Below, piece after piece: positions 27,836 to 61,151 of a stretch of 64,000 nucleotides of DNA. How positions within the stretch are numbered: the stretch's first letter is position 1; the number at the start of each line of letters is the position of its first letter. This DNA is from Tubulanus polymorphus. Its lineage: Eukaryota > Animalia > Nemertea. The stretch covers positions 9,300,001-9,364,000 of the forward strand of contig NC_134031.1 of the NCBI RefSeq assembly GCF_964204645.1, given 5' to 3'. A program made the position numbers and the translations under genes. Under the pieces are notes generated by a model, which did no database searches, was not told where the DNA came from, and saw only the letters and a list, made by a program, of their open reading frames with translations.

Positions 27836-28037
27836 TTTCTCCAGGTCTCACCGAATATCACACAGATTTTGTGGTTGAAAAAGAAAAACAAATCGGTTAA
27901 GTTTCAATTTATAGAAACGGGATTAACTGGACGCAAAGAATTAAACTAATCTAGGCCCTACGCACGTTAGTTCGTTTGTCATCAACCGGTGCGATTAGTC
28001 TTTGTCGACTATGCAATGTTAATTCGTTTGATATAAG

Positions 28038-30647: not shown

Positions 30648-32390
30648 ATCTGTCTTACCTTGGCCAAGTTTGGGACACCTGAAAAATTGATATTATTACT
30701 TAAGCATCTAAATGAAAAATTAGAATTCCAGCTTCCAATGATCCAATGGAAAAAAATCATCCTCATCACTACATATTATAACTGGTGAATTTTCACGCAT
30801 AAAACCTTTCTTTAAAGGAGTTAAAAATTGAAAATTTTGTGATGTTTGAGAAGGATCATATAAATTTGAAATATCAATGGTTCCTGTTATCAACCAGTCT
30901 ATCAAAATAAATCTGAGAAAATGTGAATTTTTACTGATATTTCTTAGGTATGAAAGTCTAGAATCGATGGCATTCGGACGTTTTGCAGCTAGTGTATAAA
31001 ATTCATTGCTCTCAAATGCTGCCAAGCATCCACCAATAATGGATGCAGGTCCGCAGACAGCACCACAACTTTGAATAGGATAAAGGGGAGAACATTGTGA
31101 GGAGCATTTATGTCTACCATCATGACCAAAATTCACCGAGTGACAGAGTATAATATTCGGCCGATGCCTTATATGTAGATGATCAGATAGTTGATGTATA
31201 TGTTATTTGAACTCAGGTGGACATGGCCAACCTAAAGTGTCCATATAAAAAACACAATTCTTAGAAATATCAAAAACAGCACATGAATAATGATTTGCCA
31301 TTTGATGATGAGAGCGATGTAAAAATGAATGTCCCCCACCAAACCCAACATGCAAGAAAAATATGAGCTTTTCACATGAACTGAAAAAATCCCCATTAAA
31401 TAGACGTTGCATTTTAATTGCAAAACGCTCAGAATCAAAATACATAGGGAACATTTCAGCATAAACAGAAGGCTTTGACATATTTATCAAATGGGAAAAA
31501 GCATTCATGAGTGAACCATCCAACCAGGTGTTCAATGCGAGGGTTTTAATTTCATCAACTTGTAAACTATATCCATTTACATTTATATGTTTACTGGGGA
31601 TCTCATTCTCTAAATATGAAAGAAATATTTCTCTGTTATTTTTCATGGCTGCATTTTGAGTAATAGGGAAAACAACAAGACTAGCTCTTAACCATTCAAC
31701 AATTCGAATGAATACTTCTTTATTTTTTTTGGCAGTTACTAACAAAAAGCGCAATTTTTTAAGTTCATCAATGCTAAAACAGCCATAATCAAGGTTTACA
31801 TGGTTAGAATTTTTGCCGTGAAAACCCAAAATCAACTCATCCAGTTGTTTTTGATGAGGAGTGAATTGGGCATTCTCAGCACTGGTACAAGTACCTGTGC
31901 ACATGCGACACTCAATTTGCAAAGATGCCTTTGTTATAGGAATATGCATCTTTGCATAATAGCCAAGGGGTTGCTCATCTAATTGAACATTTTCATCAGA
32001 TTCACCCTCTCCTTCACTAATAACAATTACATCACCCCCACCACGGATTCTCCTAGGCACATTTCCTACCTCTACATGTTCAAACTGTTTCTCCAACTCT
32101 TTCGTATTACCAGTATCTGACACACACCCACTTTTGCAAGCACACCGACAGCTCCCACTCTCGCACGCACACCGACAGCTCCCACTCTCGCACGCACACC
32201 GACAGCTCCCACTCTCGCAAGCACACCGACAGCTCCCATTCTCGCACGCACGCCGACAGCTCCCACTCTCACCAGTTACTCTCATATCTGTCTTACCTTG
32301 GCCAAGTTTGGGACACCTGAAAAATTGATATTATTACTTAAGCATCTAAATGAAAAATTAGAATTCCAGCTTCCAATGATCCAATGGAAA
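29110..32390. repeat. 1638-bp near-identical tandem duplication
   Basis: ORF starts 30647 and 32285 differ by 1638; junction near 30748 has GGAAAAA microhomology; the right copy carries a stop at 31203. Confidence 0.92.
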
Positions 32391-33619
32391 AATATCAACA
32401 ATGGTTAAGGTTCAATACTTACGTATCAAGATCATGAAAACTAACAACATGGTTAAGGAGATCTTCCCAATTCATTAAATCGGATCCACAAAAGCACACA
32501 TGGTCTGAAGGATCTACATAGTCAGAGACCTTTAACAAATAACATAATACAGCATAAAATGTGTACCGGGTATCTACAAGGCATAGTTCATAACCAGCTA
32601 AGAGATAGATTTTTAATCAAACGTACTTGTTTCACAGCAAATCTTTTCTTTTTCTGACATCTTTTAGAGTATTTACAAGGAATCTGTTGTACTTTAATCT
32701 GAAAAATTGATTTAGGCATCAATGAAATGCTGCTGCTGCTGCTTTAATCATATCTAAAACAATAATATGCACTTACATCAGAATGATATAATGAATGAAT
32801 TTTTTCGCTGCATAGAAGAATATCAACTCCAGCAACATTAATCCTAGACATACCCTAAAAACAAATGAAAAATTGTGTATCAGTGCTAAAACTGGAAGTA
32901 TGCAACAGCCTCTTCATGTGCAGCACAGGCTTGAATAAACATCAATGTGAATACACATGATAACATATAAGTACAATCAAAAATATTTTTGGTAAAATTG
33001 ATGACATTATTATGAGAATGATTAAATATACCTCGCTGTAATCACTCTTATCATTCTTCGTACATGTATAACTAGTATTATAAAAGATATTCTGTTGTCT
33101 TGAGCTTGTCTTGATCTGAAAACAGAATTGAATTGTAGAAGTTTTAAAATGCCTTGCCCTTTTGATTAACAAGTTAACAGTGCCACATTTAAAATTGGAA
33201 AATAAGGGCTTCTCTAATAACTAACCTTTATTCCCATTGATACACATTTATCTTTTACTAATCGCTCTCTGATCTTTGTTATCACCTATATAGTGAACAT
33301 AATGAATTGATCAAGAAACAATCAAATATAATCCATTTTTCTTTACTTCGAATCGAATCGATAGTCCAATTTACCTTTTGTCTGTGAATTTTCCGATTTT
33401 CTAACATTTTTGATACTTCGTACGGAAAATATACCGGACCCCTATATGATTCAAACATATTTTTCATTAAAATCTGATTCTAAAAATTAAGAGATTCAAT
33501 AATTTTCCGAGATGGACAGTGACTTTAACATAGTCATAGGGAACGTCTCCATATGCACAGTAAAACAAGCTTAATCATTATTTCGTAATTGATGTATATA
33601 TACATCTAAAAATGATCCT

Positions 33620-34492
33620 ACATCCTGATTTCACTGGTTAATAATGCAGATTAAAATGGGCTCTACTGTATTATCATTCTCATACCTGGTTTCCTGACTG
33701 CTTAAAAGATCGATTATTCTCCCTTCGATAACTATGTTCCCTTCTCTACTGGGATGCAAAAAATCCGTACTATAAAATAAAAATTGGTTAGGCATGGACA
33801 ATGTATTACCAATAGGTCAGGCTAAAGAGAAATATTTTACTTACGGGGAAAGTAACTCCTCAGAAAACTCAAGATCATAGAATCTAACCCCCAGTTTCAA
33901 ACATTCTCTGTGTAGCATTTCGTTATAGTACTTGACTTTTATGTTAGCATCATAACTGAAAAATAATTTCAGGGAAATTAGGTGAATCACCTTCAGATCA
34001 AAAATGAAATTATAAATATCATTTCCGTCATTCTCATGATAAAACAAACTCTTCAAACGATCAATGTAATCATTGAAATACTTACTTGTCAAGTCTAGTA
34101 AAAAGAGCTGGTACTATAATCGGGCAATAACATTTACTAATTACAAGACGAATCAAATAAACATGCTGTTCCAGTACTTTTTCTAGCGGTTGGTCCTCAG
34201 TCATGTTATTTGTTCCCACATGCAAAATAACCCGATTCGCATGGATAATATCAACTCTCCGTAATTCTGTAATGAAATAAACACAATCATATCTATACTA
34301 GCAAGAGACTATCTTTTCTAAAAATTTCATTCAGAGTGTTTGTGATTGTATTTTGCAACGACAAGTCGACAACTATAAATTACCTTTTATCAATGTTTGG
34401 ATTCTGCCTCCAGGGCACACTATCTTTTCCCAGTCAAAAATGTCATTTTGTCCCACATATTTGAGGATGCTGTCTGCCAAGAGACAGATACG
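33620..34492 (-). CDS. Spliced SGNH/GDSL hydrolase domain (exons 34384-34492, 34086-34266, 33845-33955, and from 33769 downward)
   Basis: GT-AG introns with compatible phases give CLLADSILKY..CPGGRI..RVILHVGTNN..TRLD..YNEML..TDFLHPSREG (SGNH blocks I, II, III, V). Not present in the ORF track. Confidence 0.78.
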
Positions 34493-35029
34493 CTAAAAAG
34501 ATACCGTACCTTGAATTAAACATAGTTTTTACTCATATCAGTATCAATGTTTTGTGACATGTATTAACAAACCTGCTTGTGTCTAAAATGCCTAACATGT
34601 AGGTCTAGGCATATGAAAAAATGTGCATAAGTATAAATGTGCTAGATTGTATAATAAAACTAAAACACCAAGTATTTACATTTTCTATCAACATATGAAA
34701 AACACAATAAAAAGCATATCACCACCATGCAAATAAAACTAAAACACCCAATTTTTACATTTTCCACCAACAATAACAAATGTTATATATGATAAATAAA
34801 TCATATGTGATGAATAAATAAAACAATCAATAATGTTACGAAGCAAGGATATCCGTACTGAATTAAATGGATACTGCAATGTAACATTACAGATTACAGA
34901 TAGATAGACTATAAAGATAGCTAGACTTAGAAAAAATAATACTTATCCCTAAAAACCACATGTTGAACTGTAAGAAACAACATATAATTAAAAAAATATT
35001 CATTTTTCAGGTACGAGTTAGGCCTAAAA

Positions 35030-35350
35030 GGAGCGGTGTGGGGCAGGGGCACTCAACTCTGGGAAGCCAGGTTGTGGGTTCGAATCCTGTATAGGCTACA
35101 TTAACGTAGTGTCCCTGGCCTGGGCAAGGCACTTATCCTCAGACATTGCCTCTCTCCACCAGGAGTAAGTAGGTAGGCGGCCTACAGGGTCTGAAAGATG
35201 ACTACTTTAGTAGCTGGTCAGATGTTACTTCTCCCACCCCAGGGCCAGGCCAGGGAGAGATGATTGATACGTGGCTGGCATTAGTTATAGCAATTTAATG
35301 GAATTAAGCGCCTTTGAACATTTTATCACAGTGAAACGTATCGCTATCAC
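35030..35350 (+). mobile_element. tRNA-derived SINE
   Basis: B-box GGTTCGAATCC, conserved GTGTCC..TGGGCAAGGCACTT central motif, LINE-like TAAGCGCCTTTGA tail. Confidence 0.7.
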
Positions 35351-37082
35351 TTATTAGTTAGTATCAATCTTTATTTTAGTCTTCTTAACTCAAGTATTAA
35401 GTAAGAGAACCGTTTGCAATTATAATAATGATAATTGTAGTATTGTTGGTTAATAATCACGCTAATAATACAAGTCAGAGTGCGTGTTAAGCAATAAGCA
35501 TTTACCTCTTTTCTACTAATCACATCTGATCTGTTGGATCCAGCAACAAGTTGAACTCTTTCCGAAAACATTTCTTTTTCGAACGCAAATCACGACTTCT
35601 GAAAACTGAATAGCGCGCTGTGAACTTCAACTTCAAAACAAATTTGTTGAACAGCAGTGTATCGAAAAACTGTACGTACAGTGTACTGCGAACTGAACGC
35701 GGCGTCTTCTCACTTAGAAAATTATCGACTTGACAGATTAGTTCGATTTTCGACCGCAGCGGCGCTATACGACATTGGACAAAAGAAACTTTCTACCTTT
35801 TGCCGTAATTCTAGTAGCCTTCAGCGACTCAACGACCTTGATTTAAACTTGATCAATTCAAAGTCTATTTATTGACGCTTTTGGTTACATGAACTGATCA
35901 GCAATATACTTAAATAAAATAACCGGAATAACAAGAAATCAAAAATATTAAAGAGGTAACAAACAAATGCCCGTAAACCTGTCAGACACGCGAACGCCGG
36001 ACTCGTAAACTCTTGGACTCGGACCAGCTGAGCAATAAATTCATAAAATTGACTTTGAAATTGATTGTGGAGAAGAGAGGGAATTATTCGATAGCGTTCC
36101 TCGAAAAGAAGAGAGAAATATCGGTAAGAAAACACAACATGGCTACTAATTGAATGGAGCCAAATTTCCGATGTTTACGGCTCGACAGTGCCTTTAAAAC
36201 GTGGATTTATCAAAATTCCCATGCAGTATCTGGAGATTGAAGTGAGCTGAAGGACATCATACGGATTGTATCGGCGACAGCGGTAAGGTAAGGAAGCCTT
36301 TACACTTTTAACAAAAACTATGTGGAAAAGGGAAAAAAAAATAATAATAATCACGCGAATTTCAATAGGGTTTTCTGTGAAGAAACAGAAAACCCTAATG
36401 AAGCATATCCAACCCATTTTTGTAATTCAGTCATAACTAAATAGTCATTTTTCAAATCACTATATAGTTTATTTTCATCATCAATTGGTATTAACTGGTT
36501 ACATAACTTAGAATAACATTTGACAATACCATCTGAAATAGAATCATTTATTCGGGCTAATCTTGCTTCTTCATAAATCTTAAAATATTTTATTACTTTA
36601 TCTGGTTTCATAGCATCTAATTCTTGAAAAGTTATTATTTTTCCCAAGAAATCCTTAGTTTTTCCACCGGCAATCAATAGTTCTAGATGATGCTTACAAT
36701 ATAAATAGTATTCATAATCTATATTACAATAACTTGAGCACAATTAGTTACAACTGTATCTTTATTATCACTTATACCCAAATCATCTAATGTCTTTTCA
36801 ATATCAATACTATTCTTATTAGATTTCTTTGACATTTATATTAGAGAAAAAAAGCCAAACAAATATTATAAGTATTATAAAATGATACCAGTATCTCTTT
36901 AGATTAATCCTAGCTTAGTTAAAGGTAAAGAATTTTAGTATTAGTTATTGTTTTTTTAGTATTTTTTATTTGTGGTATAAAGTATTCTTTTTTGAAAAGA
37001 AAATATTAAAAATGTAATAGAATTCACTAGCTAGTGGAAGTTATTGTTTTTTTAATATTTTTTATTTAAAATCTTTTATTCT

Positions 37083-37751
37083 TTAACCACTCATTAAAGA
37101 CTCAACGTATTGTTCATTATTTGGATCATTGTTCCATTGATCAATAAATTTCTTTGCCTTTGTTAACTGTTCTAAATATAACTGTAAATCTAGTTTATTA
37201 GATTTAATTATGTTTTCCTTCTTTTCTAAAGGTCTTAGATTCTTCCAATTCCAAATAAGTTTTTTATTGTATTCATCATTCATGTCAAATTTAGAAATCG
37301 GCAACACGTGATCAATATGAAAGTATTTACCATAATTATCTATATTCATTTTATCATCGAATTGATATATTATCCATGATTTGAGAAATTCATCTGAACA
37401 ACCCAACAAATTAGATAGTGTTTCTGAATGTGTTTCTTTGTTGAATAATTGTGTTAATCTAGATCTTAAGCATTGTTTCAATCTAAAATTAAGATCTGTT
37501 TTATATCTTTCTCTCATATATTCTGCCATATAATAATTATAATGTTCTATATTATCTTCTCGATATTGTTTGGTATATAGTTTAGTACAAGTTTTACAGC
37601 AATATTGAAAACCATCTTTGCTAATCTTACGCTTACTAAATTCTGTTAAAGCTAATTTATCTATTTCACATTTAGAACACTTCTTGTGGTATATGTTTAT
37701 GACACCAGTGTTATTTGTAATATTTATAGTTTGTGGTTGTTCTGGTTCCAT
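37083..37751 (-). CDS. HNH/endonuclease VII-like protein with N-terminal CxxC pairs
   Basis: CSKC..CKTC; HIDHVLPIS...WKNLRPLEKKENIIKSNK; homolog at 56852-57526. Confidence 0.8.
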   Translation of the reverse strand: MEPEQPQTINITNNTGVINIYHKKCSKCEIDKLALTEFSKRKISKDGFQYCCKTCTKLYTKQYREDNIEHYNYYMAEYMRERYKTDLNFRLKQCLRSRLTQLFNKETHSETLSNLLGCSDEFLKSWIIYQFDDKMNIDNYGKYFHIDHVLPISKFDMNDEYNKKLIWNWKNLRPLEKKENIIKSNKLDLQLYLEQLTKAKKFIDQWNNDPNNEQYVESLMSG

Positions 37752-38256: not shown

Positions 38257-39066
38257 TTACTTTTTGAGTGTTAGATAATTACTTTCTGAATCACTTTCAT
38301 CATCACTCTCCAATTCATTATCAGACCCTAACAATTTATTCAAATTCTCTACCGAATTTTCTTCTTCAAATTCTCTATTATTTTTATACTTATTTTTCAC
38401 CTTTTTTACCGAATCATCAATAGTTTTTTCATTGTTATGCTTATTCATCCAATCAAATTTATCATTATTTTCTACTTTATGTTTCATAGAATCTTTATTA
38501 GTGTTTGCTCCTAATATTTCATTTACAGTGTTTGATCCTAATATTTCATTAGCATCGGTTAGATCTAATTCATCTTTATTAGGTGTTGCTAATAAAAAAT
38601 CTTCATATAATTCTTTACCATTTACTTTTTTATTTGAAACAAATTTTGTAACATATCTAAATGGGTGTTCTATAAATTCTTTTAAACCAACACGTTCTAT
38701 AACATTATTTATATGTACCCTTGTATTCATATGTTTATTCCATTTTGATGGAGCGTTTGAAAATTCACCTTTACAATAATCACAATTATTTCTATTTTCA
38801 CTAACATTTAATATTATTGCATTATTTGATGTAGAAGGTATTACATTATTAGATGTAGAAGGTATTACATTATTATCAATTACATTACTTAAATTATCAA
38901 CAACACCACTTTTATTATTATCGATTTCTATTAGTTTAGTTTTATAAATTTTGAAAATAGGATCAAATTTCAAAGCTATATTACAAGGTATTACATAATA
39001 TAAACCATCATTATTTTCATGTGTATCGATGTATGGAATATGTTTATATACTTTACCTCCTTCCAT
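38257..39066 (-). CDS. Variable protein with one C2H2/matrin-like zinc finger
   Basis: CDYC..KWNKHMNTRVH; 269-aa ORF with TAAATG start. Confidence 0.65.
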   Translation of the reverse strand: MEGGKVYKHIPYIDTHENNDGLYYVIPCNIALKFDPIFKIYKTKLIEIDNNKSGVVDNLSNVIDNNVIPSTSNNVIPSTSNNAIILNVSENRNNCDYCKGEFSNAPSKWNKHMNTRVHINNVIERVGLKEFIEHPFRYVTKFVSNKKVNGKELYEDFLLATPNKDELDLTDANEILGSNTVNEILGANTNKDSMKHKVENNDKFDWMNKHNNEKTIDDSVKKVKNKYKNNREFEEENSVENLNKLLGSDNELESDDESDSESNYLTLKK

Positions 39067-39098: not shown

Positions 39099-40346
39099 TT
39101 AATACATAACATTATTCAATTGAGAATTTACAATATTTAATTGCGCGTCAGATATAATATAAATGTGCATTTTGAAATTTAGACTTCCTTTTTTCTTTGT
39201 CATGAATAATTGTATTCCATCTTTAGTGTTTTGTAATTTTTTTCCATAACCATGTAATGAATTATCCTCTGTTGTTCTAAAATCTAACCATAATGCATAT
39301 TTATTACCGGTATAATAATCAATTTGATTAATATTACAATTTTCAGATGATTTCACTTTTTCATTCATAAAATGTTTTCTAATTTCTGACCATTGATCAA
39401 TCATTCTCATTCCTTGACAAAATATTTTATTTGCTATTCCTTCGATAGTTATTTCTACTTTTGTTATTTCAGGATTATAATACTTATCAACCTGTATTGC
39501 ACCATTAGAATATGTTGCAATGGTAAAAAATATTAATATGCCTTTAATAGATCTCCTTGGGAAGTTAATATTCTCATTAATAATTTCATCATTGGCATTA
39601 ATAGTTACGGTTTTAAATTTATCAATATAATCATATAATAATGAAAATCCTTGATTGTATTTAGTTTGAATTATACTTGAAATATTTTCATCAGTTACTG
39701 TGTCATATTCTAAACATATATTCGATAATTTATAACTCATATCTTTAACAACGCTAGATATTACAATTTCATTAACAGGAGCAAATGTTATTTCGAATAT
39801 AACGTCTTCTTGAATTGCATATTTATATAAAGGCGCATTATTATTTATCAATTCAAAGTCTAATGGGATTTTATATTTGCTTCCATAAATCTTTTTTATC
39901 AAATTATCTGCAGTACGAGTTACTATTGCGTCATTAGCTCCCGATCTTAATTTATTTTGGTTTTCTGATTGGATTCCTTGAAATATCATATTATTTCTAT
40001 TTTCTTTAGTTAACCATAAATCTTTATAATGCATAAATAAATTATAATCATCTAATGAGAAAACTGTTTCTGGACCAATCTTTATAGTTAATTTTTTAAT
40101 CAAATATCTTCCAACATTATCAACAATATAATTATTATTATTACCGATTACTTTTATATCGGCTGATAAATAAATACTATTTGGAACGTAAAAAGTATTT
40201 TGTGTTAATCGAGGAATTCTAACATATAAAGTTTCATCAGGATTAATATTTGAAGGATTATGAGTAATTATATGATGTGATCTTTCTGCTTTAATAGCAT
40301 TAGATATTCTATGATTATTAGAAGGATTGATATAACTCCCACTCAT
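39099..40346 (-). CDS. Putative major capsid protein (double jelly-roll)
   Basis: 415 aa, beta-rich; HNPS.INPDETLYVRIP, VDNVGRYLIKKLTIKIG, Y.LSNICLEYD, PRRSIKGILIFF resemble adintovirus-type MCPs; highly conserved with 62372-63619. Fold is inferred. Confidence 0.75.
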   Translation of the reverse strand: MSGSYINPSNNHRISNAIKAERSHHIITHNPSNINPDETLYVRIPRLTQNTFYVPNSIYLSADIKVIGNNNNYIVDNVGRYLIKKLTIKIGPETVFSLDDYNLFMHYKDLWLTKENRNNMIFQGIQSENQNKLRSGANDAIVTRTADNLIKKIYGSKYKIPLDFELINNNAPLYKYAIQEDVIFEITFAPVNEIVISSVVKDMSYKLSNICLEYDTVTDENISSIIQTKYNQGFSLLYDYIDKFKTVTINANDEIINENINFPRRSIKGILIFFTIATYSNGAIQVDKYYNPEITKVEITIEGIANKIFCQGMRMIDQWSEIRKHFMNEKVKSSENCNINQIDYYTGNKYALWLDFRTTEDNSLHGYGKKLQNTKDGIQLFMTKKKGSLNFKMHIYIISDAQLNIVNSQLNNVMY

Positions 40347-40386
40347 TTATTTAACAAAAAAATTAATTATTTATTTTGAATCATGT

Positions 40387-42105
40387 TTACTTGATATTTT
40401 TTGATATCATATTTACTAACCCAAAAATAATAGCACTTACAGCTGTAATTAAAAATAAAATAATATGTTCAGCAGCAAAGTTAATAATGTTCCCTGCAGA
40501 TTTCAATATAAAACCAACAATTGATGCAATAACTCCTGGTAATGCTGCAGCAGATTTTTTAGATAGTTCCCATAATTATTTTGCTAATTTCTTTAAACCA
40601 TCCTTAACTTTATCTTGTATAGAATTATTATCTGGAGGTTTATCTGGTTTATTGGGAGTAGGAGTAGATTTCAGTGAATTTGATATAGCTAAACCTATTG
40701 TTGTAAATAACATAGTTACAGCTGTTAGAATTGAAAGAATTGTGATTCCTTCAAACTTAAATAATAATTTTATTCTATCTTTCAATGATATTTTAGAATC
40801 TGGTTTAATCAACAAATCTTTAAAAATAACTTTTAATCTATTAATATTATAATCATATGATTTTAATAATAATTTAATTTCTTCTTTTTGTAATTCTGTG
40901 TTATATTCTAAATCATCTTTTTCTAAATACGCATTTCTTTTTTTAAATTCGATTTCTTCAATAACTTTATTATCTCTATCTAATTTTAGTTGTTCTATTT
41001 CTTTATTTTTATCAGTTAATTCTTTTTCTAAAGTTCTAATTTTAATATCTCTTTTACTTTTTTCATGCGCAATTTTATCAGCTGATTCTTGCATACCTTT
41101 AATTTCTCTACGTGTTTGTTCAGGAAATGCTTCTAATTCATCATCAGTTAAATCAAATAATCCTTTTTCTAGTAAAGATTGTATTCGATTTATTCCAGTT
41201 TCAGCACCGGGTGTATCTAAAATACTATTCATCTCTTCGTCAAATGATTGAACTGTATCTAACATGTTACCAAAATGTTTTACTAATTGTAATTGACTTG
41301 AATCATTATCAATTTGTTGAATATCTCTTCTCGATGTTTCGGGCGTTGAAGATCTTAATTTATCTAATCGATCTCCATACTCTTCCATTTCTGGATCAAC
41401 ATCAGGAGGATTTAAATTCGGATTTTTAAATGGTGAATATTTGTTTATATCAATATTAGGAATTGGTTCTTCTTCATTTATTCTATCGATTGCATTCCAT
41501 ATAATTCTGAGAAATTCTCTACCACCTTTTGAACGTTCAATTGAAGATCCTGCACGCATTTCAGGATGGTACAGATCTTCTTGTCCCATTTTAGATAATT
41601 GAATTGATACAGTTTCGTTATTTAATTCAACTTTATAAAACCATGAATCTTTTTTAAATTCTAAATTATTCATGAAAAATGGATCATCTTCTACAATTTG
41701 TATTGCAATATCTTCTGGTTCAATGTTATATGTTACATTTTTTGGTAATAATTCTTCAATAACTGGATTTGTTACACTATGTTTTATGTATAATAATTCT
41801 TTTTTCAATACAGGGTTTTCTGTTCTTTCTAATCTATTAATTAAATCTTTTCTTTCTGGTCTAGTTTTAATTATTATCTCATCGCGGGTTCTTAAATAAT
41901 CTATTAATTTTTCACTTGTTTCAGTATCATCTTTAAATTCATCATAATCATATAATATAGGCCCACTAGAATCATCTTCACCTAAATTAGTATTATATGC
42001 TGCTCCACCATCATTATCAATATTAGTTTCATTAAAATCAGGTTGTGGTTCATCACTTATACCGGGGGCGTCACCAAAAGTATCCATTGGAATATCTTCT
42101 TCCAT
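40387..42105 (-). pseudogene. Acidic coiled-coil protein with C-terminal TM helices (frameshift near 40576)
   Basis: 509-aa ORF; the tail in another frame matches the intact 63665-63991. Confidence 0.75.
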
Positions 42106-42117
42106 TTATATAAAAAA

Positions 42118-43466
42118 TTAAAATTTAAAATATAATATTCCTCCGATTACAATTCCTATACAAGTTAAAGCTAATTTAGTATTTTCATGGGATTTATTAT
42201 CATCATTTAGTTTAATTATATCATGTTGAATATTATCAGTTTTTATATTTTCTGATGTATTGAAATCTTTTATTTTAGAATCATTATTTAATTTGATATT
42301 TTTAGTTTTAGTTTCAGTTGATTGAATATGTTTTTTATTTTTTTCACCTTCCATTAATTTTGGAGCAGTAATAATCTTTTTATTTATATCATTTAACCCA
42401 AATGAATTATTTATTGTTGCAGTTTTAATTAGATTATCGTAACCAATTATGTTTCCCATCTTTAATACTAAATCATTAGAAATGATTAATAGATTAGGGC
42501 CTATACAATAATTTAGTCTTACATGTGATTTATCTAAATAATTTTGATATCTTACAATGTTTTCTGGAATCGATCTATTTTTATCATTATGAATTGAATC
42601 TTCAAATAATACTTTGAATTGTCTCTGCGCATCGAATGAAGTGTTATCATTTCCAATTATTGGGGATCTTGTTTCAACTTGAGCACCTAAAATACATATC
42701 AAATAAGTTCTAATAGATTGATTTATTCTTTGTATACCAGCTTTAGTAAAACCTTCACCATTTTCTAAAATGAAATTAACCCAACCATTATTGTTTTGTT
42801 GTTGTATATTATTATAATATTTTGGTAATTCATTCCAATTTAGTGTTCTTATATCTGAATTTGTCATTATTTTTCCAAATTCTTTAGTATACAATATTCC
42901 TAATCCACCCATTGTTCCAATTTTTGCTCTAAAATCTTTATTTGAATTAATATAAAATTCATTACATATTTTATAAAACTTAGAGAAAAAATTAATATTA
43001 TTATTCAATTCTTTAAAATATTTTGAACCTGGTGAAGGACATTCTAATTCATCTAATATTAATTTCATTTGAAAATATGTTTGAAATCTAAACAGTGATA
43101 ACATCAATGGTAAACTTGGTTTGTTTAAATGATCATTCCAACTAATTCCACATCCTGTTGTTGCACAATAAACAGCAAAATTTAATTGGTTCTGCCAATA
43201 CTTCATATTAGATTTTAATAACCATTGTTTTGCCTCATTTAAATTTTTGAAATTAATTGTATACACATGAAATATATTTTCCATCTTTACATGAAAATTA
43301 TTACTTTCAGTAACATAAATATATAAATTAATTAATTAATTAATTAATCAATTAATGAATTTAAAACTTCATTTCTATATGTAATATCTTTATTAAAATC
43401 TATTGCAGGAATATTGTATTTGATTGATTTATTATATTGGAAAGCTTTTGGAAAACTATCTACCAT
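42118..43466 (-). pseudogene. Conserved Polinton-like protein with C-terminal TM anchor (5' part disrupted)
   Basis: YWQNQLNFAVYCATTGCGIS, GFTKAGIQRINQSIRTY; TAAATG start at 43466 upstream of the 388-aa ORF. Confidence 0.65.
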
Positions 43467-43482
43467 TTATATAATTAAAAAA

Positions 43483-43917
43483 TTAATAATTTATTAATTC
43501 TTTTAATAATTTATCTTGTTCTTCAACTGTTATATGGCCATTTAAACTTATTATATAATCTAGTGTATTCTTTAATTTATTAATCTCTTTTATATTAGTT
43601 TTAATTTTTTCTTTATTACTTTTTATATTTATTTTTGAACTTATACCAGTTAAAACACTTGAACTTAATCCTAATACGCCAATTGATATAGCTAAAGGTG
43701 TTAATGGACTGAATATTGCTAGAAATGTTATTACAGAACTAATTGTAACCGAACCACTTATAATCAAATAATATATAATTTTAGATTTTAAATATTTTTT
43801 CTTTTTTATCTTTAAGTCACTTTCAAATTCTAATATTTGTTTTTCTAAATATGTTTTTAATTTAGTTTTATTTATATCATGAGGAATAATATCAATATTA
43901 TCAACTTTATCTTCCAT
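43483..43917 (-). CDS. Coiled-coil / hydrophobic hairpin protein
   Basis: Two adjacent hydrophobic segments flanked by Lys-rich helices. Confidence 0.65.
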   Translation of the reverse strand: MEDKVDNIDIIPHDINKTKLKTYLEKQILEFESDLKIKKKKYLKSKIIYYLIISGSVTISSVITFLAIFSPLTPLAISIGVLGLSSSVLTGISSKINIKSNKEKIKTNIKEINKLKNTLDYIISLNGHITVEEQDKLLKELINY

Positions 43918-43932
43918 TTATTTAGAAAAAAA

Positions 43933-44357
43933 TTACTTATTAGTAAATTTATATGCTACAAATATAACAATAACAGTTCCACCTAAAATCCAAATTTTTT
44001 CATATTTCTGTTGTTCTTTACTTGGGGTATAATAATCTGATAATTTAGGTTTGTATAGATGTAATTTTTCTTTATTGGGTACCGCGTTATATAAACTCAT
44101 TGCATCATCAACTGATTGAAAATCTCTATGTGAAATCTTCTGATCATATAATTCCTTGTTAATATAATCCATATAGTTTTGTTGTTTTTCTCTATATTCT
44201 TCCGCTGCTTTATTATATTTCTCTAATTCTAAGTTATGTCTTTTTGTTCTGTTAATGATCCATTTTTATCAATATGTTTAAATAAATATCCACCACCAGT
44301 AAATGCTAAAGCGTTAACAATTGCCGATCCTATAATAGTTATAACTGCAGAAGCCAT
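43933..44357 (-). pseudogene. Small membrane protein (MASAVITIIGSAIVNALAFTGGGYLF...), frameshifted
   Basis: TAAATG start at 44357, hydrophobic N-terminus; 79-aa ORF supplies PKLSDYYTPS..Q plus a TM tail. Confidence 0.65.
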
Positions 44358-44381
44358 TTATTTAGTAAAATAATTATGCAT

Positions 44382-44603
44382 TTATATGGGAGGAATATAT
44401 TTTTGTTTTTCCAAATAATCAATAGTTAAATTAGATAAAGTAACTGTTAACGTTAATTTTAAGATATCATTTATATCAAATCTATCAACATTAACACTTC
44501 CCATTTTGAATACTTTTTTTAATACCATTGAATAACCAACGGTTCCAACTGATAGTAATGCTCCATTATATAATCCAGTTATTATCCACTTATTATCACT
44601 CAT
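44382..44603 (-). CDS. Small hydrophobic protein
   Basis: 73-aa ORF in the tightly packed same-strand array, TAAATG start. Confidence 0.6.
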   Translation of the reverse strand: MSDNKWIITGLYNGALLSVGTVGYSMVLKKVFKMGSVNVDRFDINDILKLTLTVTLSNLTIDYLEKQKYIPPI

Positions 44604-44960
44604 TTATTTATCAAAAAAATTACTATCATCAAAATATCTAGTTAACTTATTTACGATTAATTCAACATTTATTTCATTACTAGTTTCATTTGTATATATT
44701 TCAATTATTATTTTTTTAATATCATCGATGATAAAATCTACATCTAATTCATAAAATCTTAAAGATTCTCTAATTAAATTAGTAATCTTTTCTACATTAA
44801 AAGTTTCTTTATCTATTGTTGTTTCATACTCAAATGTTGTTTCATTAGAAAATGCAATATTTTTAATATGTGTAATTACATCATTAACGTTGAATTTCAT
44901 TTCTTTCTCATGTTTAAAATCAAACCCAAAACATATACCCGGTCCAACAGTTATATTCAT
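44604..44960 (-). CDS. Hypothetical protein
   Basis: 118-aa ORF whose stop abuts the next ATG. Confidence 0.55.
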   Translation of the reverse strand: MNITVGPGICFGFDFKHEKEMKFNVNDVITHIKNIAFSNETTFEYETTIDKETFNVEKITNLIRESLRFYELDVDFIIDDIKKIIIEIYTNETSNEINVELIVNKLTRYFDDSNFFDK

Positions 44961-44976
44961 TTATATAGGTGAAAAA

Positions 44977-45390
44977 TTACTCTTTACATCTTACAACTAA
45001 TTCATAAATTACAGGAAAGTTATTCAAATCAATTAAATAACCATTGTGATTTCTTATTTCTAATTTAAAATTATTAAATTTAGGAACGCAAGGTATAAAA
45101 TCACATTCTGTTAAATTATAATTTATTTGCGTTCCAAATTGTTTAACATTTTTCAGCGGTAAAATATTTAGTATACTAGAATTACAAATTGTTTCTTTAG
45201 TTGCTTCGAATGTTTTTGTAGGCTCGATTAAATTGCAATAAATATAAAAGTGTGTAAAAGGTATTATATTTAAATTACCATCTATGTTTCCTGTAACAGT
45301 ATCTGGTGCAATTCCTAGCAATTTAGCTAATGGTTTTTTTTACCATAAATGCATGTTGACTTTCATCATATACCTTTATTGAACTGAAAA
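44977..45390 (-). pseudogene. Putative minor capsid (penton) protein, C-terminal part
   Basis: FYIYCNLIE..SSILNILP..FKLEIRNHNGYLIDLNNFPVIYEL, typical of the Polinton penton C-terminus; 5' end lost in a deletion fusing it to pPolB. Confidence 0.65.
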
Positions 45391-48300
45391 CTGAAGCGCC
45401 AACATAGATTGGTTTATTAAATTTCATTGATGTTCTTCTCATCTTATCTGCGGCTAGATTTTCAAATATTCTGTTACCAATGAACTTAGGATATGTTTGT
45501 TAATGTCTAATTCTTTTACCACTACTAACTAACTCAATATCATTTCTATTTCTAATATTTTCACAAGTCTTACCATAGAATGCATTATTCATTAGTTTGA
45601 AGAAATCTTTTTCGAAATCAGTTTTAGCTTCAGTTCTCTGTTTGGTGTTAAAATCTATATATTTTTCTAACCATTTAGATTGACTAAATGAAATATATCT
45701 ATGTACTTTTCTTAGGATCATTCCTTGTTTTAGATAAAACTGTAACATTCTATAATGTACTACATAATTATATTTATCTTCTTGAGTTACCATTAACTTT
45801 TCTGTATGAATATGATTTTCGGGTTTAATTCTTTTTTCGTAATTTGATAATTCTTCATGAGTTACAGTTTTATGTTCTGGACAGTAAGCTAGATTTCTAG
45901 ATTTAAATTTAATATGTTCAGGATATTCTAAATCTACAACAAAGAAGTAACCAGTATCTGAATCATCTGCAATATCTAGAATTCTTTTCTTCCAATCAAA
46001 TTTATCATTATTTTCATTCTGTAAAACTTCAGTTAATTCAAATACTCCATAAGGTTGTGGTTCCATCATTGCCCAACCATACAAATTATTTGCATCTATA
46101 TATAATAACTTATAACCAGGGTTATCATTTACATTGAAATATCTATCCCCTAATACACCTGAAACTCCTCCTCTTATAGATTTTTCAAATAATAATAATT
46201 GATCTATATTTGTTAACAAATCCATTTTTATATCTGTAAATTTTAATCCACAATCCCATGTTAAACCTGGTGATGAATAACAATGTCAAGGATCAATATT
46301 GAAATATTTTAGGTTTACATCTCTAAACCTTTCGAATATATCGGTTAATAATAATACATCTGATTTTAGATATAAATCTACTAATTGTCCATGATTTGTT
46401 ATTTTAAAATGATTCCAAATATTCAATGTTCTATTATATACTTCATCTTTAACATATTCATTTTTTAATTCATCATAGAATTGTTCTTTCAATAATTCAG
46501 TTATATTGAAATCATTATGTGATTTATAAAATGAATATGGAATTGCTCCTTTATCTCTCATTATTTTTAAAATCATCATTATTTGGGTAATATTCTTTCA
46601 ATATCTTTAATTCATCATCAACTAATGATTTTGATAAGTTATCTAATGAACTATTTAAAAATCTATATGAATCTATAAATCTTAGGCAACCAAATTGGAA
46701 TGATATATAATTCTCAGATGATTTAGCTAACATTCTAAATTTATAAGTTGGTATTTTATCTTTTGATCTATTTGAATTTAATCTTTCTATTTCATTATTA
46801 ATTTCTTCTATTTTATGACATAACTGTTTGATAAATAAATGTGCATCATATCCTGATAGATTATGAAATATAACTGGTACAAAATTAATTTTCTTAGCTT
46901 GTAAATTACAATTCTCATGTGCAGCGCCTCTAAACTTTCCATTCAAATGATCATGGTCTCTTACTTTTTTATCTTTATAATTAAATATCTTTTCACAATA
47001 ATAACATTTATCTGCAAACGCAAATGCTTCTTTATCTTCTTCTGTCATTATAATTTCTATATTTGTATTCAATAATTTACTAAATCTTATTTCATATTCA
47101 ATTAATAAGTCACAAAAATGATTGATAACATTTTCATTTCTATAATCATAATATTCACTTTCAATTAGTTCTGGATAATCAGATTTAATATATGACCCGA
47201 AAGCGGCAGCTGATTGATGAATCTTTTTAATAGTATTTGTTTTTGGTGGTTCATCTGAAAAATCATTTTCATTAGAATTTAATTTCTTTCTTTTATAATA
47301 TATTTCTTTTCTATCTTGATCAGTTAATTCTTTATTTAATGATTCAAAATCTCCTTATATAACAAATGGAACTTTATTTTTGTAATCATATTTTTTGAAT
47401 TCTAATATTTTATCTTTTTCATTTGGTAAAACTAATTTACAATAATCATGATTTTCACATAATTGTTTATGATTTAATAATGTACTTTCATTACTGAATC
47501 TTTGTAAACATTTTCTACAAAGATATATTTTATGGTGATCATTTTCTGATTTAAAAAATAAATCGATTTGTTTAATCCACATATAATGATTCTCATAATA
47601 TAGTATATCTATAACATCATTTGAATCATAATCTTTTGATAGATATAAAGGTTCTAATGTATAATGTTTTATATTGTTACCTTTTGTATTTGGTATTTTG
47701 ATTAGATCAAATACATTTATTCTTAAATTATTATCTCTTTCTATCTTTGGGACGTTTTTAATTCTAACAGGATACTTATCTATCTTATAATTATTTTCAA
47801 ATGGTTTATAATGAGTTAATCTAAAACTATGTGTAATATCTTCTGTTGGGTGTAAACAACCTATTATAGCCCATAGAAAACATTCATCATCTTCATTTTG
47901 TACAATTATTACAGCATTAGTTTTAAATGGTAGTTTGATATAACTCGATGCTTCAATATCTGGTTCTTTATAATATGATACATTATTTTCATCTATTGGT
48001 TTTGATTTAGTTAACTTATTATATTTTGTGTTATAAACATGTTAAGTCATAAATATTATTTCATCAAATATTAAACCAGATCCTTCAAAATATTTCTCTT
48101 CTATTTTAGTTTTTACTTCAGTATAACATTTATCTAATTTATCATCTATATGTTGTTTTGAAATAATATGTTGTGAATGAGATTTTATATTATATATTGG
48201 TTTATCTTCAGATTTTATAAACTTTACTTTTGATGAAATACTTATTTTAGGATATTCAACATCAGTTATTATTTTTATTATTTCTTTCATATTTTCGAAA

Positions 48301-48800
48301 TGTTTTTTTATTTTCTTCTAATGTTTTACCTTTATGAAATTTGAACTCAATAGCTGCAGGACCAATATCACTTTTAAATGCTTCGGTTATCTCTATATCT
48401 TTTTTATTATCTAATGAATTAATATATTTCTTACATCTTCCATGTATGGTCTTTTATTGTTTAATTTATTTTTTATGCTTTTAATTGTCTTCTGTTTCTT
48501 ATCATTATCTTTATCAAAATAATCTTCACCTAAAATATCATTATTCATATTTCTTAGATGACTTTTAGATTTTAAATGTTCATTATAATATCTTTTATCA
48601 CTGAATGATTGATTACATGTATCACATTTGTATGTTTCTTTTTCATTCTTTAATTCATCTAATTTAGTTTCTAATATATCATCTTTATATTCTAGTTTCA
48701 ATTTATTCTCTAAATGTGTTTTAGTTTTATTGTGTCTTGCTTTTTGGGATTTATCTATATTGATATTACATGTTGGACAGTAGTACTTATTTGCTTCCAT
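45391..48800 (-). pseudogene. Protein-primed family B DNA polymerase, fragmented, C-terminus deleted
   Basis: DHDHLNGKFRGAAH..CNL, FHNLSGYD.H, FIDSYRF, YLKSDVLLL, IRGGVS, YIDANNLYGWAM, KLMNNAFYGK, NKPIYVG; no YxDTDS motif; N-terminal zinc fingers at 48411-48800. Confidence 0.92.
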
Positions 48801-49006
48801 TTTAATACTAAATTTTTTATTAAAATTGATTTTAGAAGTTCAATGATTTATATCATGCATTATTTCAATCACACTTTACTAACACTTTTAATGTTTAAAA
48901 ATCTAACTCACACAAATATGAATATTGAAATAATGTTGTAAATATATACTTTTATATTGAATAATCTGTCAATTTAAATGTTATTCATTTACATGAATAT
49001 TTTAAG

Positions 49007-49417
49007 AGTAATAGGGGTAATGGGCTTTCATATCAAAGGTTGAATGGTCGAGCTCATTAAAAAAGGAATATTAAAAGTAATTTAAAACTATAATATATTT
49101 TCATAACCGTGTGTATTTCAGTTGAATAATAGAATAATTATTATTATTAAAATATATTTGATTATATGAATTTGTGTACTGTAAATAAATCAATTGGTCG
49201 CGGAGCGGAGCGGCAGCGAAGTGGAGCGACCAATTGATTTAATACAATATGCTTTTAAAATTAAAATTATTGATATCTTAGAATAAATATTTAGTTATAA
49301 TATAAAATACACACGGTTATGAAAATACATTATAGTTTTAAATTACTTTTAATGTTTTGTTTTTTAATGAGCTCGACCGTTCGACCTTTGGTATGAAAGC
49401 CCATTACCCCTATTACT
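49007..49417. repeat. Right terminal fold-back palindrome of element 1
   Basis: Reverse complement of 17239-17650 with a few substitutions. Confidence 0.95.
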
Positions 49418-50625
49418 TCCGGGAGTTTTCTTCTTAAGAAATTGAGAGTTGGTTCCAATGGTATATTAGTGAACAAGGAAACAGCGTCGAAAGATATAAA
49501 TTTTTGTCCATTAGGTTTGAGATTTTTGAGTTTGTCTAAAAGATCCATATTGTGACGAATGTGAGAATCAGAAAAAGTACCCGGGGAGAGTACTTTAGCC
49601 AGATATTTGGAGAGCCGATATGATGGAGAATTGATATTAGAAATGATCGGTCTTAACGGTGAATTGGGTTTATGAATTTTTGGAAGACCATAAGCATAAG
49701 GAAGATTTGGAAGTCGAGAGTTAGATTTGGAGATGAAGTCCGAATGGTCAGGAAATTTCTTAGAGATGTTTTTTAAACCTAAATTAAAAGCTGATTGCAT
49801 CTTTTTCAAAGGGTTGTTTTTGATGGATTTGTAGAAATTGGAATCACCGAGAATAGCAATCATTTTAGAATTGTAATTGATCAAATCTTGAATAACAATT
49901 TTGCCGCCTTTATCAGCCTTGGAGATGCGGATGGTTTTGATGGATTTAAGTTCCTGGAGAGCAATCGAAAATCTCCGTGGAAAGAACTGACTAGATTGAC
50001 CTTGAAGGGTATTCCAAATGGTGTCCAAATTCATAAATATATAATTGTATTGAAAACTAGCCGTAGGAGATCTTTCCATACGTTCAACGAAATCCAAAAT
50101 GTGTTGTTTTCTATGCGGGAGAGAGAAATTTAATCCTAAACCGAGAACTTGAATTTGTGTTTTGGTTAATTTAGCCGAAGATAGATTGACAACATTATCA
50201 GTAGCGCAAAATTTGGTCCAAGGGCTGTTGTCGATTAATTTATTCAGAATGGAAGAGAAATGCGAATTTTTCTTTAGACGATGTACCGCGCAAAGATTCT
50301 TGATGCCCGAATGAAGGGAGTGCCAAAGGAAACCATCAGGTATATGGTGTCTGAGAAAACGTTCTGCTTGTCGCATTTTATAGAAATTAGAGTTGGTAGT
50401 TTCTTTTGCTTCCATAATGCAATGTCTTAGATGAGATCCTGCTTCATTGGAAAATGGTTGATCTGATTTGAATTTATTCAACCAATTCAGAGATTTAGGA
50501 GTAACCTGTTCTTGGAGACATTTTTGAAGAAATATGACGTTTTCTTTGGATTTGTGAGCTTTATAAGCAGCAGATTCGTATTTTCGAAAAGCAAAGATCA
50601 AATGAGGATATAATAAATCAAAAAC
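49418..50625 (-). pseudogene. Penelope-like element ORF, N-terminus and start of RT
   Basis: VVNLSS, LGLGLNF, KADKGGKIVI, YGLPKIHKPNSPLRPIIS, SFDAVSLFTNIP. Confidence 0.92.
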
Positions 50626-51367: not shown

Positions 51368-54300
51368 AATATAGCTGCAAAGCAGCGATAACGGGTTTTC
51401 TGCACAGTCTTAGAATCCTGTTCAACGGTGGATTTCAACAAAGCATTTGATAAGGCTCAACATCAGCCATTACTGAACAGGCTATTAGGAAACAGTATCA
51501 ATGATAGGTCGCCCAAATGGCTCAGCAGTTATCTCTGAACGGAAACTTGTAACCGAAATCAACGGAACGCCTCATCTTGGAATGAGACGGTCTAACTAGT
51601 GGAGTCACGCAAGGTAGTATCCTAAGTCGTCTTCTGTTTAATGTCCTGACAAATGACATACACAGTAATCCAAAATATACCAGACCGAGTAAATTTCCAA
51701 AACAACCTTAACACACTGTTCGACCAAAAACGTAATGTTCCGACAAAACCACAGGCGACAAAACCAAAATTATGAATTGTCGCGGGCGATAAAACCACAA
51801 TAATGAATTGTCGCGGGCGTTAAAACCAAAATATTGAATTGTTGCGGGCGATAAAACCAAAATAATGAATTGTCACGGACGACAAAAACAAACTATTGAA
51901 TTGTTGCGTGCGACAAAACCAAAATAATGAATTGTCAAAACTCACCACAATCATAGACGATGTCATGAACTACAACTTTGCAATGGATCATGGTAACAAA
52001 CTATGTCTAGGTACCAATCTAATAAGGAAAAACTAAGCTTTTCTACTATTCAACGCCCCCTGGTGACTATTTGTAATAACTAATGTCCTTAAAAACTCAC
52101 CACAATCATAGACGATGTCATGAACTACAACTTTGCCATTGATCATGGTAACAAAATATGCCTTGGTACAAATATAATATAGCGATACTAAGTTATTGTA
52201 TTATTCAACGCCCCCTGATGGCCACATACAAAAACCAATGACCTTGAAACTCACCAAAATCATAGAACACGTTATGGGCTACAACTTTCCAATTGAATAT
52301 AGTAACACAATATGCTTAGGTATCAATTAATTGTGGAAAAACATTTTCCCACCTACGAATGAGTACTGATGACACCAAGATGGCCGCCAATTGCGTCATA
52401 ATTGGCTGATCAAAAATACCTGTCCCAGGTATAAAACATCCCTCTCTAAAGAATATCCATCAGCAATTGCAATGAGAAATGGCAAACCAGTAGGAAGCTA
52501 CAGGACCTAGAATTCTGGCCAAAATTGACATTTTTGGGCACTAAAAAGGTCATAGGACGGCCTTCTTGAGTCAGATCGACCCAATTTTCTTATGCTGATG
52601 GGCCTTTGGTAGATTCAAATATAAACGAAATATCAAGGTAATTGATCAAAGCGTCTTAAAAATTTTCTTCGGGCGACGAAACCAAAATAATGAATTGTCG
52701 CGGGCGCCCAAAAACAAAATATAAAACCAAAATAATGAATTGTCGCGGGCGAAAAAACCAAAATAATGAATTGTCGCTGGAGATAAAACCAAAGTAATGA
52801 ATTGTCGTGGGCGATAAAACCAAAATATTGAATTGTCGCGGGCGACAAAACCAAACTAATGAATTGTCGCGGGCGACAAAACCAAAAAAAGAATTGTGGG
52901 GGCAACAAAACCAAAATAATGAATTGTCGTGGGCGACAAAACCAAAATGGTGAATTGTCCAGGCGACAAAACCAAAATAATGAATTGTCGAGGGCGATAA
53001 AACCAAAATGATGAATTGTCTCGGGCGACAAAACCAAAATAATGAATTGTCGCGGGCGATAAAACCAAAATAATGAAGTATCGCGGCGATAAAACCAAAA
53101 TATTGAATTGTCGCGGGCGATTAAACCAAAATATTGAATTGTCGCGGGCGACAAAACCAAAAAAAAATTGTCGCGGGCGACTAAAACAAAATATAAAACC
53201 AATTGAATTGTCGCAGCGATAAAACCAAAATAATGAATTGTCGCGGACGACAAAAACAAAATATTGAATTGTTGCGTGCGACAAAACCAGAATAATGAAT
53301 TGTCGCGGGAGACAAAACCAAACTAGGGGTCCAGGGACACCATGCTCACTTGGGAAGTGGTTTCAAATGCTCAACAATCTAACAATTTCAATACATAACG
53401 CCCTCTAGTGACCATATACAAAAACCAATGACCTTGAAACCAACTACAATCATAGAACATGTGAGCAGCTTTGAATTGGTAATTGATTGTGATAACAAAA
53501 TATGCCTCGTTACCAATTTAATATGGAAATACTAAGCCATTCTACTATTCAACGCCCCCTGGTGACTATATGGAATAACTAATGTCCTTAAAAACCCACA
53601 ACAATCATAGACGATGTCATGAACTACAACTTTGCAATGGATCATGGTAACAAACTATGCCTAGGTACCAATCTAATAAGGAAAAACTAAGCTTTTCTAC
53701 TATTCAACGCCCCCTGGTGACTATATGGATTAACTAATGTCCTTAAAAACTCACCACAATCATAGGCGATGTCATGAACTACAACTTTGCAATTGATCAT
53801 GCCAACAAAATATGCCTTGGTACAAATATAATTTAGCAATACTAAGTTATTGTATTATTCAACGCCCCCTGATGGCCACATACAAAAACCAATGGCCTTG
53901 AAACTCACCAAAATCATAGAACACGTTATGGGCTACAACTTTCCAATTGAATATAGTAACACAATATGCTTAGGTATCAATTTAATGTGGAAAAACCTTT
54001 TCCCACCTACGAATGAGTACTGATGACACCAAGATGGCCGCCAATTGCGTCATAATTGGCTGATCAAAAATACCTGTCCCAGGTATAAAACATCCCTCTC
54101 TAAAGAATACCCATCAGCAATTGCAATGAGAAATGGCAAACCAGTAGGAAGCTACAGGACCTAGAATTCTGGCCAAAATTGACATTTTTGGGCACTAAAA
54201 AGGTCATCTTGAGTCAGATCGACCAAATTTGCTTATGCTGATGGGCCTTTGGTAGATTCAAATATAAACGAAAGATCAAGGTAATTGATCAAAGCGTCTT

Positions 54301-54912
54301 CAAAATTTCCCACGAAAACTTCGAAAATGTTCAAAAAGTGCTGATTATGGCAAACAACAATGGCTGCCAGTCGACCATCTTGAATCTGACAGGGCCAGTT
54401 TTTGGGCTGACGATGTGTCTAGGGTAGATACATGTATAAACCAAATATCAAGACATTACCTTGAAGCGTCTTCAAAACTTCCCGAAATAACTGGATTCCG
54501 TCTATGGACGGACGGACGGATGGACGAAATGTGAACGCAATAGCCCGCTGGGACTAAAGTCCCAAGTGGACTGAAAAAGAATTGTCGCGGGTGATAAACC
54601 CAAATATTGGATTGTCGCGGGCGACAAAACCAACCTAATGAATTGTTGCGGGCGATAAAACCAAACTAATGAATTGTCGCGGGCGATAAAACAAAAATAT
54701 TGAATTGTCACGGGCGATAAAACCAAATAATGAATTGTCTCGGGCGACAAATACAAAATATTGAATTGTCACGTGCGACAAAACCAAAATAACGAATTGT
54801 CGCACAGTACACAGTAATCCAAGATATACCAGACCGAGTAAATTTCCAAAACGACCTTAACACGCTGTTCGACCACAAAACTTAATGATCCGACAAGAAA
54901 ATCTTGTACGCT
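51368..54912 (-). mobile_element. HINE-type copy B with minisatellite arrays and nested second-family HINEs (51938-52665 partial, 53322-54573)
   Basis: Same end motif and first ~380 bp as 14559; 31-bp arrays; nested copies share sequence with 20601-21157 and contain tandem internal repeats. Confidence 0.65.
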
Positions 54913-58805: not shown

Positions 58806-58808
58806 AAT

Positions 58809-61125: not shown

Positions 61126-61151
61126 AAAGGGTATTATATTCATATTTTAAA

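Follow-up and report, generated by a model that had tools for sequence, protein, structure and literature searches.

Almost every gene of a Polinton-like virus integrated in the genome of the nemertean Tubulanus polymorphus starts at the sequence TAAATG, with a T residue 12 nucleotides before the ATG. The virus, here called element 1, lies at 17239 to 49417 of a 64,000-nucleotide stretch of contig NC_134031.1 (positions 9,300,001 to 9,364,000 of the forward strand), which we call the window. A second copy, element 2, begins at 54913. The two-part signal is real and clade-wide, and it is apparently unreported. It is probably a promoter for the cytoplasmic RNA polymerase of a helper virus, and a poxvirus-like giant virus is slightly favored as that helper, with the signal acting as a late-type promoter.

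TAAATG and an upstream T at the gene starts

It had originally been predicted from the sequence that most of these viral genes start at TAAATG behind a run of T, resembling a poxvirus late promoter. The starts proposed for element 1 were all confirmed at their coordinates, with TAAATG at 12 of 14 (listed below). So were seven further TAAATG starts at 14084, 56852, 57830, 58425, 59890, 62339 and 63619, which amount to 7/9 outside element 1 (element 2 plus the fragment containing 14084). The two exceptions named in the prediction are also correct. The integrase start at 19454 reads TAAG-ATG and has TAAAA shortly upstream of it; that of pPolB at 48800 reads TAAAATG. The split or short open reading frames (ORFs) beginning at 43466 and 44357 align with intact orthologues in the close relative L003 from residue 1, and the ORF beginning at 36835 opens with the residues that also begin the element-2 gene at 57830. 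The starts thus agree with their orthologues and were not chosen for the motif, so the count is not circular.

There is no excess of TAAATG over the window as a whole (107 observed, 103.6 expected), and the enrichment is therefore positional. As a null we used mechanically defined first-ATG ORFs in shuffled element DNA, where 87 of 1257 ATGs (6.9%) are preceded by TAA. Against this background the 12/14 of element 1 has p ~1e-12 and the 7/9 elsewhere p ~2e-7. Non-element ORFs of at least 100 amino acids in the window have TAAATG at 0/8 starts.

The upstream T runs of the original prediction are present as runs of 5 to 7 T before 7/14 starts, but the constant feature is instead a single T at −12, found at 13/14 starts of element 1. 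Alignment of 66 dereplicated starts from the element and its relatives gives an A tract at −18 to −16, then T at −14 to −12, then a looser 8-nt spacer; G and C fall to 0–3% at −15 to −13 and T reaches 88% at −12. The capsid gene provides an example (40344 to 40364, minus strand), with an A-to-T core at −18 to −12, the 8-nt spacer and TAAATG. T at −12 distinguishes true starts from other occurrences of TAAATG, both in the window (17/18 versus 26/50) and in the relatives (56/64 versus 31/102). The signal is retained where it lies inside upstream coding sequence, at the ATPase start and at the starts at 19829 and 58425. In 7 of 11 head-to-head gene pairs (five of them independent) TAAATG is present on both strands, 19–30 nt apart, with a common central core. 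Neither a stop codon upstream nor a poly(A) signal can therefore be its cause. Together these features point to a transcription signal carried by each gene. Runs of at least four T precede 30/47 genes of the capsid module and 8/27 others (p 0.007). A division into two promoter classes, intermediate-like and late-like, was not adopted; there is only a hint of it, as A runs show no such difference (p 0.25).

The same signal is found in relatives of the element. We retrieved 82 loci, some of them near-copies, with an alignment of 44 capsid proteins, and defined their ORFs mechanically. A close set comprises the 16 loci whose capsids share 50% identity or more, and the other 66 form a distant set. 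In the close set (20–44% GC) TAAATG is present at 52/60 ORF starts, while internal out-of-frame ATGs, taken as a control, have this context in 37/896. The distant set has it at 14/324 starts, and 12/63 in its 20 AT-rich loci; ten of the 14 come from the divergent element L039, where all 10/10 starts are TAAATG. A dereplicated set that includes L039 gives 53/61. The sets differ likewise at position −3, which is T in 53/60 close-set starts and A in 169/324 distant-set starts. In a capsid tree of 23 rows the main TAAATG group has support 100/99. L039 groups weakly with three loci lacking TAAATG and the tree requires two motif changes, yet a single TAAATG clade is not rejected (p-AU 0.19). No relatives were found by capsid or ATPase in the viral contig collection.

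A sister lineage (L027; also L015 and L016) is without TAAATG. In L027, which encodes a VLTF3-like protein, TATA lies 7–19 nt before the ATG at nine starts, and in 7/9 of these an ATT(T/C) core is found about 10 nt further upstream; the background for this core is 13/46 of all TATA in the locus. In African swine fever virus (ASFV) the late promoter is given as TATTT...TATATA in the parts of PMC5294985 available. The likeness at this one locus suggests that helpers may have been switched within the family. Separately, the close relative L003 has a deoxynucleoside kinase gene (10340 to 10981) with a TAAATG start, and the sole match of its product, at 37%, is in an unrelated large virus. Capsid proteins of the element clade (cluster P0046) are labeled 'Bartonella sp.' in public databases, and these entries are probably co-sequenced animal DNA.

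The polymerase that reads the signal

What we take from published papers, here and below, comes from parts of their text. In vaccinia late promoters TAAAT overlaps the start codon, mostly with G as the next base, and the tenth nucleotide upstream is a conserved T in the midst of other T residues (PMC11980589). On vaccinia numbering, where the first A is +1, the −12 T of the element is at −10, and judged against the wording of that review it appears to fit the published promoter within one base. In the vaccinia intermediate complex the polymerase reads TAAA directly, spanning −1 to +3 (PMC12917281). TAAATG is also a conserved motif of a fish poxvirus (PMC4542343), and poxviruses have bidirectional promoters (PMC3185747). 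The likeness to poxvirus late promoters that was originally proposed has thus survived every sequence test and has gained the T at −12; its specificity for poxviruses has not fared as well, as the iridovirus data below indicate. We also looked for the early terminator TTTTTNT. It is depleted on the coding strand (21 versus 48.5), yet the A-rich mirror is depleted too (194 versus 269.5), and we therefore ascribe this to general homopolymer avoidance and take it as no evidence for a terminator.

If the signal is a helper promoter, a co-infecting large DNA virus would provide RNA polymerase and late factors, and every gene would be its own transcription unit, transcribed from its own start. Transcription would begin within the AAA of TAAATG, and slippage of the polymerase would add a 5′ poly(A) leader. 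Vaccinia and yeast virus-like elements both form such leaders by slippage on an initiator of this type (PMC6211774). The leader would replace the unfavorable T at −3, which would therefore be tolerated. The genome would be copied by pPolB and packaged in capsids, and the integrase would insert copies into the host genome. The virus would be expressed only alongside the polymerase and late factors of its helper, like Mavirus with Cafeteria roenbergensis virus (CroV), and in cells free of infection the integrated copies would stay silent until the helper returned. A Pfam scan of 28 ORFs of the window and 27 of relatives found no RNA polymerase gene, and with none of its own the element would be virophage-like in lifestyle. 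Copying of helper promoters is itself already established for protist virophages and Polinton-like viruses, and has been described for virophages (10.1101/2022.07.28.501842, 10.1101/2025.10.09.676808).

Several observations weigh against this reading, and most of them against a poxvirus as the helper. We compared 28 invertebrate iridovirus loci (L147–L173, L179) and 51 more distant large-virus loci, which have TAAATG at 47/158 and 82/404 starts respectively. TAAATG thus begins 20–30% of genes in invertebrate iridoviruses and other large DNA viruses and is not specific to poxviruses. A scan of viral contigs for the back-to-back pattern gave 63 loci, of which the first was a poxvirus-like contig (8/12 starts) and the third an iridovirus locus (7/14 starts). 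The poxvirus-like contig has TAAATG at 9/14 starts, in a small and motif-selected sample, and only 4/9 of these have T at −12. The match at −12 rests on the wording of a review because no chordopoxvirus DNA was compared directly; a search for further poxvirus contigs from which to draw a logo returned the same contig alone. Searches of viral contigs found no helper virus, and traced no gene of the element to a poxvirus. The median head-to-head gap is 28 nt in the 11 pairs of the element clade and 33 nt in 80 pairs of relatives that lack the motif. Distant relatives are equally compact, and compactness is therefore no evidence for a helper promoter. Lastly, the closest published Polinton-like viruses associated with entomopoxviruses (AHEV_PLV1/2, CBEV_PLV1 and Ca_PLV1) have a different gene set. 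As a side observation, L090 / L227 is a 17.6-kb environmental poxvirus-like contig with a pox kinase, L3 and NAD ligase; for its L3 protein there are only four relatives, at ~50% identity.

The helper might be some other large DNA virus with its own RNA polymerase, such as an iridovirus-like virus, another of the Pimascovirales or a member of an unsampled lineage, although we consider this unlikely. The counts given above and the third rank of the iridovirus locus fit such a helper, and iridoviruses infect aquatic invertebrates. Their late phase is cytoplasmic and has viral polymerase subunits (PMC5294985). Yet the iridovirus signal is a sharp AATAAATG, with A at 98% at both −5 and −4 and T at only 36% at −12. 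In the element clade the values are 47% and 66% A and 87% T. T at −12 is likewise just 45% in the more distant large-virus loci. The available iridovirus section of PMC5294985 does not mention a start signal of the AATAAATG type.

It is still less likely that host nuclear machinery, that is RNA polymerase II with a factor of the host or the element, reads the signal, with the virus being autonomous and the likeness to poxviruses convergent. Integration requires access to the nucleus, some Polinton-like viruses (TSV) replicate autonomously there (10.64898/2026.06.19.733378), the element has zinc-finger proteins and a sister element the VLTF3-like protein, and TAAAT is both short and AT-rich. 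Against this, none of the eight host and transposon ORFs of the window starts with TAAATG, and the T at −3 is opposite to the A preference of distant relatives. AATAAA is near background at gene ends (15/64 versus 17% in the clade; 5/174 versus 3.7% in GC-rich relatives) and is tolerated in coding regions (157 observed, 164.6 expected). Trans-spliced operons were considered and rejected, a YAG splice acceptor lying within 20 nt of only 2/14 starts. The AATAAA and splice-acceptor counts speak only indirectly against the host polymerase. Least probable of all, and in our view very improbable, is that the signal is a by-product of compaction, with upstream TAA stops or AATAAA signals abutting the ATG in AT-rich DNA. 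Many starts do read AATAAATG, which includes AATAAA, and element 1 is ~77% AT. Its gaps are short as originally described in 7/9 measured cases (0–32 nt), but the other two are 247 and 505 nt and the motif is kept at both. An upstream stop is used at only 1/14 starts (44604/44603), the one instance recognized at the outset. Moreover, head-to-head pairs have the motif on both strands, it persists at 36–44% GC and, L039 apart, few starts in AT-rich distant relatives have it, and the T at −12 is fixed relative to the start and not to the upstream stop. AT background, Kozak context and stop–start coupling, which had been put forward with the original prediction as ways in which it might be wrong, were tested and all fail.

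A helper-specific promoter predicts silence of the element in healthy tissue and a specific chemistry at the 5′ ends of its transcripts, and the existence of a poxvirus-like virus in hosts of a group in which our searches detected none. The virophage lifestyle would extend to integrated viruses of animals, and a promoter motif would be a cheap means of sorting thousands of endogenous elements by their likely helper. A broader proposal, which we hold only tentatively, is that animal germlines contain an integrated virophage-like family in which each clade has taken over its late promoter from a cytoplasmic helper of its own. If so, the element clade would carry the poxvirus type (TAAATG) and L027 an asfarvirus type (T core plus TATA). 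The integrated copies would record, as fossils, pox-like viruses that infect non-insect invertebrates and are yet to be discovered; they might also provide an inherited antiviral defense in animals, as with Mavirus.

Gene content, copies and surroundings

The features of the window are as follows, with terminal inverted repeats abbreviated as TIRs. Unless noted otherwise, each gene whose 5′ end is present has a TAAATG start at its higher coordinate.

13862–14560, plus strand: fragment of a third copy, with a TIR-like end and an HNH-like ORF; TAAATG start at 14084
17239–49417: element 1, Polinton-like virus with every gene on the minus strand, bounded by TIRs and a target duplication
17239–17712: left TIR, ~475 bp
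17744–18345, minus: A32-like packaging ATPase, frameshifted; TAAATG start within the 3′ end of the integrase gene
18347–19454, minus: broken gene for an rve integrase with chromodomain; its start is one of the two that are not TAAATG
19461–19829, minus: small basic/membrane ORF, 122 aa; start overlaps the end of the upstream gene
20000–36350: ~16 kb of host repeats (long interspersed nuclear element (LINE), other ORFs), interrupting a conserved viral gene with its TAAATG start at 36835
37083–37751, minus: HNH-like/zinc-finger ORF, 222 aa; nearest upstream gene 505 nt away
38257–39066, minus: ORF in a variable slot after the capsid gene, 269 aa
39099–40346, minus: major capsid protein, double jelly-roll, 415 aa; a run of seven T, then TAAATG
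40399–42105, minus: conserved coiled-coil/membrane ORF with a premature stop
42118–43466, minus: conserved ORF, ~440 aa in relatives, split in element 1
43483–43917, minus: SLATT-like ORF with two transmembrane segments, 144 aa, weak Pfam match
43933–44960, minus: three small conserved ORFs with TAAATG starts at 44357 (split), 44603 and 44960
44980–45267, minus: penton (minor capsid) gene, 3′ part only, the 5′ part being deleted; identified by tblastn with the L003 orthologue (44983–45267)
45400–48800, minus: pPolB in fragments, with N-terminal zinc fingers and an endonuclease VII-like insert; start TAAAATG
48945–49417: right TIR
54913–64000: element 2, ~90–95% identical to element 1 and extending past the end of the window; TAAATG at 6/8 starts

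Element 1 is flanked by the 6-bp target duplication TCCGGG (17233 to 17238 and 49418 to 49423), and has a net viral length of ~15.8 kb once the host insertion is subtracted. Because several of its genes are broken we regard it as a decayed copy. The first 112 nt of each TIR recur inverted inside the same TIR (17239 to 17350 and 17539 to 17650), so that the ends of the element could fold back. Several assignments come from better-preserved copies. The ATPase of element 2 matches Pox_A32 in Pfam (E 5e-12) and its integrase rve (E 2e-8). pPolB matches are weak in the element fragments (E 1e-4), and full-length in the distant relative L028 (E 6e-19). The two capsid proteins of the window (that of element 2 at 62372 to 63619) are 91% identical. 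The AlphaFold model of the element-2 capsid has pLDDT 87, and in Foldseek it matches the capsids of Paramecium bursaria chlorella virus 1 (PBCV-1) and iridoviruses (E ~1e-17); the protein has no Pfam match, and the adintovirus hexon is absent from its 50 best viral structure hits. The predicted fold of the L003 penton orthologue matches the mavirus penton (E 2e-11). The Pfam scan described above found no adenovirus-type cysteine protease in the same 28 and 27 ORFs. Element 1 has a deletion, yet L003 has no protease on the penton side of that interval.

Read depth over the core genes is 85–122 times that over a host gene (one DNA run), which corresponds to about 100 copies of the virus in the animal genome. 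A single run presumed to be RNA covered neither the element nor the host gene, and so carries no information on expression. The slot after the capsid gene (38257 to 39066; 61152 to 62339 in element 2) is variable, holding different proteins behind a shared upstream signal, and the depth of the element-2 slot gene suggests ~3 copies versus the 85–122 of the core genes. The module of HNH, integrase and ATPase genes is flipped in element 2 (56852 to 60504) relative to element 1 (17744 to 37751). Gene order is also reshuffled among relatives, with every gene retaining its own start signal. A convergent gap of 647 nt in element 2 (60505 to 61151) has 93-nt inverted arms and short repeats, and similar gaps are present in L001 and L005; it is possibly a terminator or an origin.

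Element 1 is inserted in what we take from its motifs to be the frame of a Penelope-like reverse transcriptase (16900 to 17238 plus 49418 to 50415), for which Pfam gave no match. Arrays of a 31-bp tandem satellite lie on either side of the elements (16099 to 16750 and 51712 to 54800). The flanking sequences include UPF0184, a C1orf109-like gene and a LINE, and would therefore indicate an animal host. A search made with the host gene returned no relatives. The UPF0184 and C1orf109-like genes (5380 to 6257) are separated by 59 nt, with TTTTGTAG immediately before the second ATG. The presence of TTTTGTAG between such closely spaced host genes may reflect a trans-spliced operon, and hence a host that is not an insect.

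Relation to known systems

The double jelly-roll capsid, penton and A32-like ATPase make the element a Polinton-like virus. Like the Maverick-Polintons and adintoviruses it has pPolB, an rve integrase and TIRs, together with an animal host, and its target duplication of 6 bp is also a Maverick-Polinton feature. It differs from them in having no detected maturation protease and in a capsid with no Pfam match and no adintovirus hexon among its 50 best viral structure hits. Given the missing protease and the unplaced capsid, we have not assigned it to Maverick-Polinton groups 1 or 2 (Polintoviricetes). Animal Polinton-like viruses outside the two groups come from octocorals, hydrozoans and bivalves (10.64898/2026.06.19.733378). 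The element family may belong with these, and one of its distant relatives is from the bivalve Mactra. Among the titles and opening abstract lines listed by our literature searches, subscription journals and preprint supplements aside, we found no report of TAAATG in Polintons. The word 'promoter' is absent from the available text of PMC8502044, PMC11131425, 10.64898/2026.06.19.733378 and 10.64898/2026.10.13.758929, supplements of the preprints aside.

Polinton-like viruses occur in entomopoxvirus occlusion bodies and have been proposed to be parasites of poxviruses (Barth et al. 2024, PMC11296320). AHEV_PLV1/2, CBEV_PLV1 and Ca_PLV1 are, like the element, Polinton-like viruses of small size from animals. 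An adenovirus-type protease is present in all four, and those with pPolB lack an integrase, the group as a whole having either none or a tyrosine recombinase (PMC11296320), whereas the element family has an rve integrase and no protease. Their link to poxviruses is co-sequencing with the occlusion bodies, and the available text and supplement of the same paper make no mention of a promoter, a motif or transcription.

Mavirus/EMALE, Sputnik and Gezel-14T (PgVV) are, like the element, capsid-encoding integrating or satellite viruses with a motif of the helper promoter on their genes, and the penton fold of the element is closest to that of mavirus. They differ in having protist hosts, Imitervirales helpers and other motifs, and their dependence on a helper was shown experimentally, where that of the element is inferred. 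The yeast elements pGKL1/2 are linear, encode pPolB and use a TAAAN initiator that gives 5′ poly(A) leaders; unlike the element they encode an RNA polymerase and a capping enzyme of their own, and have neither capsid nor integrase (PMC6211774). With the vaccinia late promoter the element shares TAAAT at the start codon, a T-rich element, a T about 10 nt upstream and short back-to-back promoters. In the element, however, known here from its sequence, the signal is carried by a 16-kb integrating virus without a polymerase, it stands before nearly all genes including those for replication, and an A tract precedes the T core.

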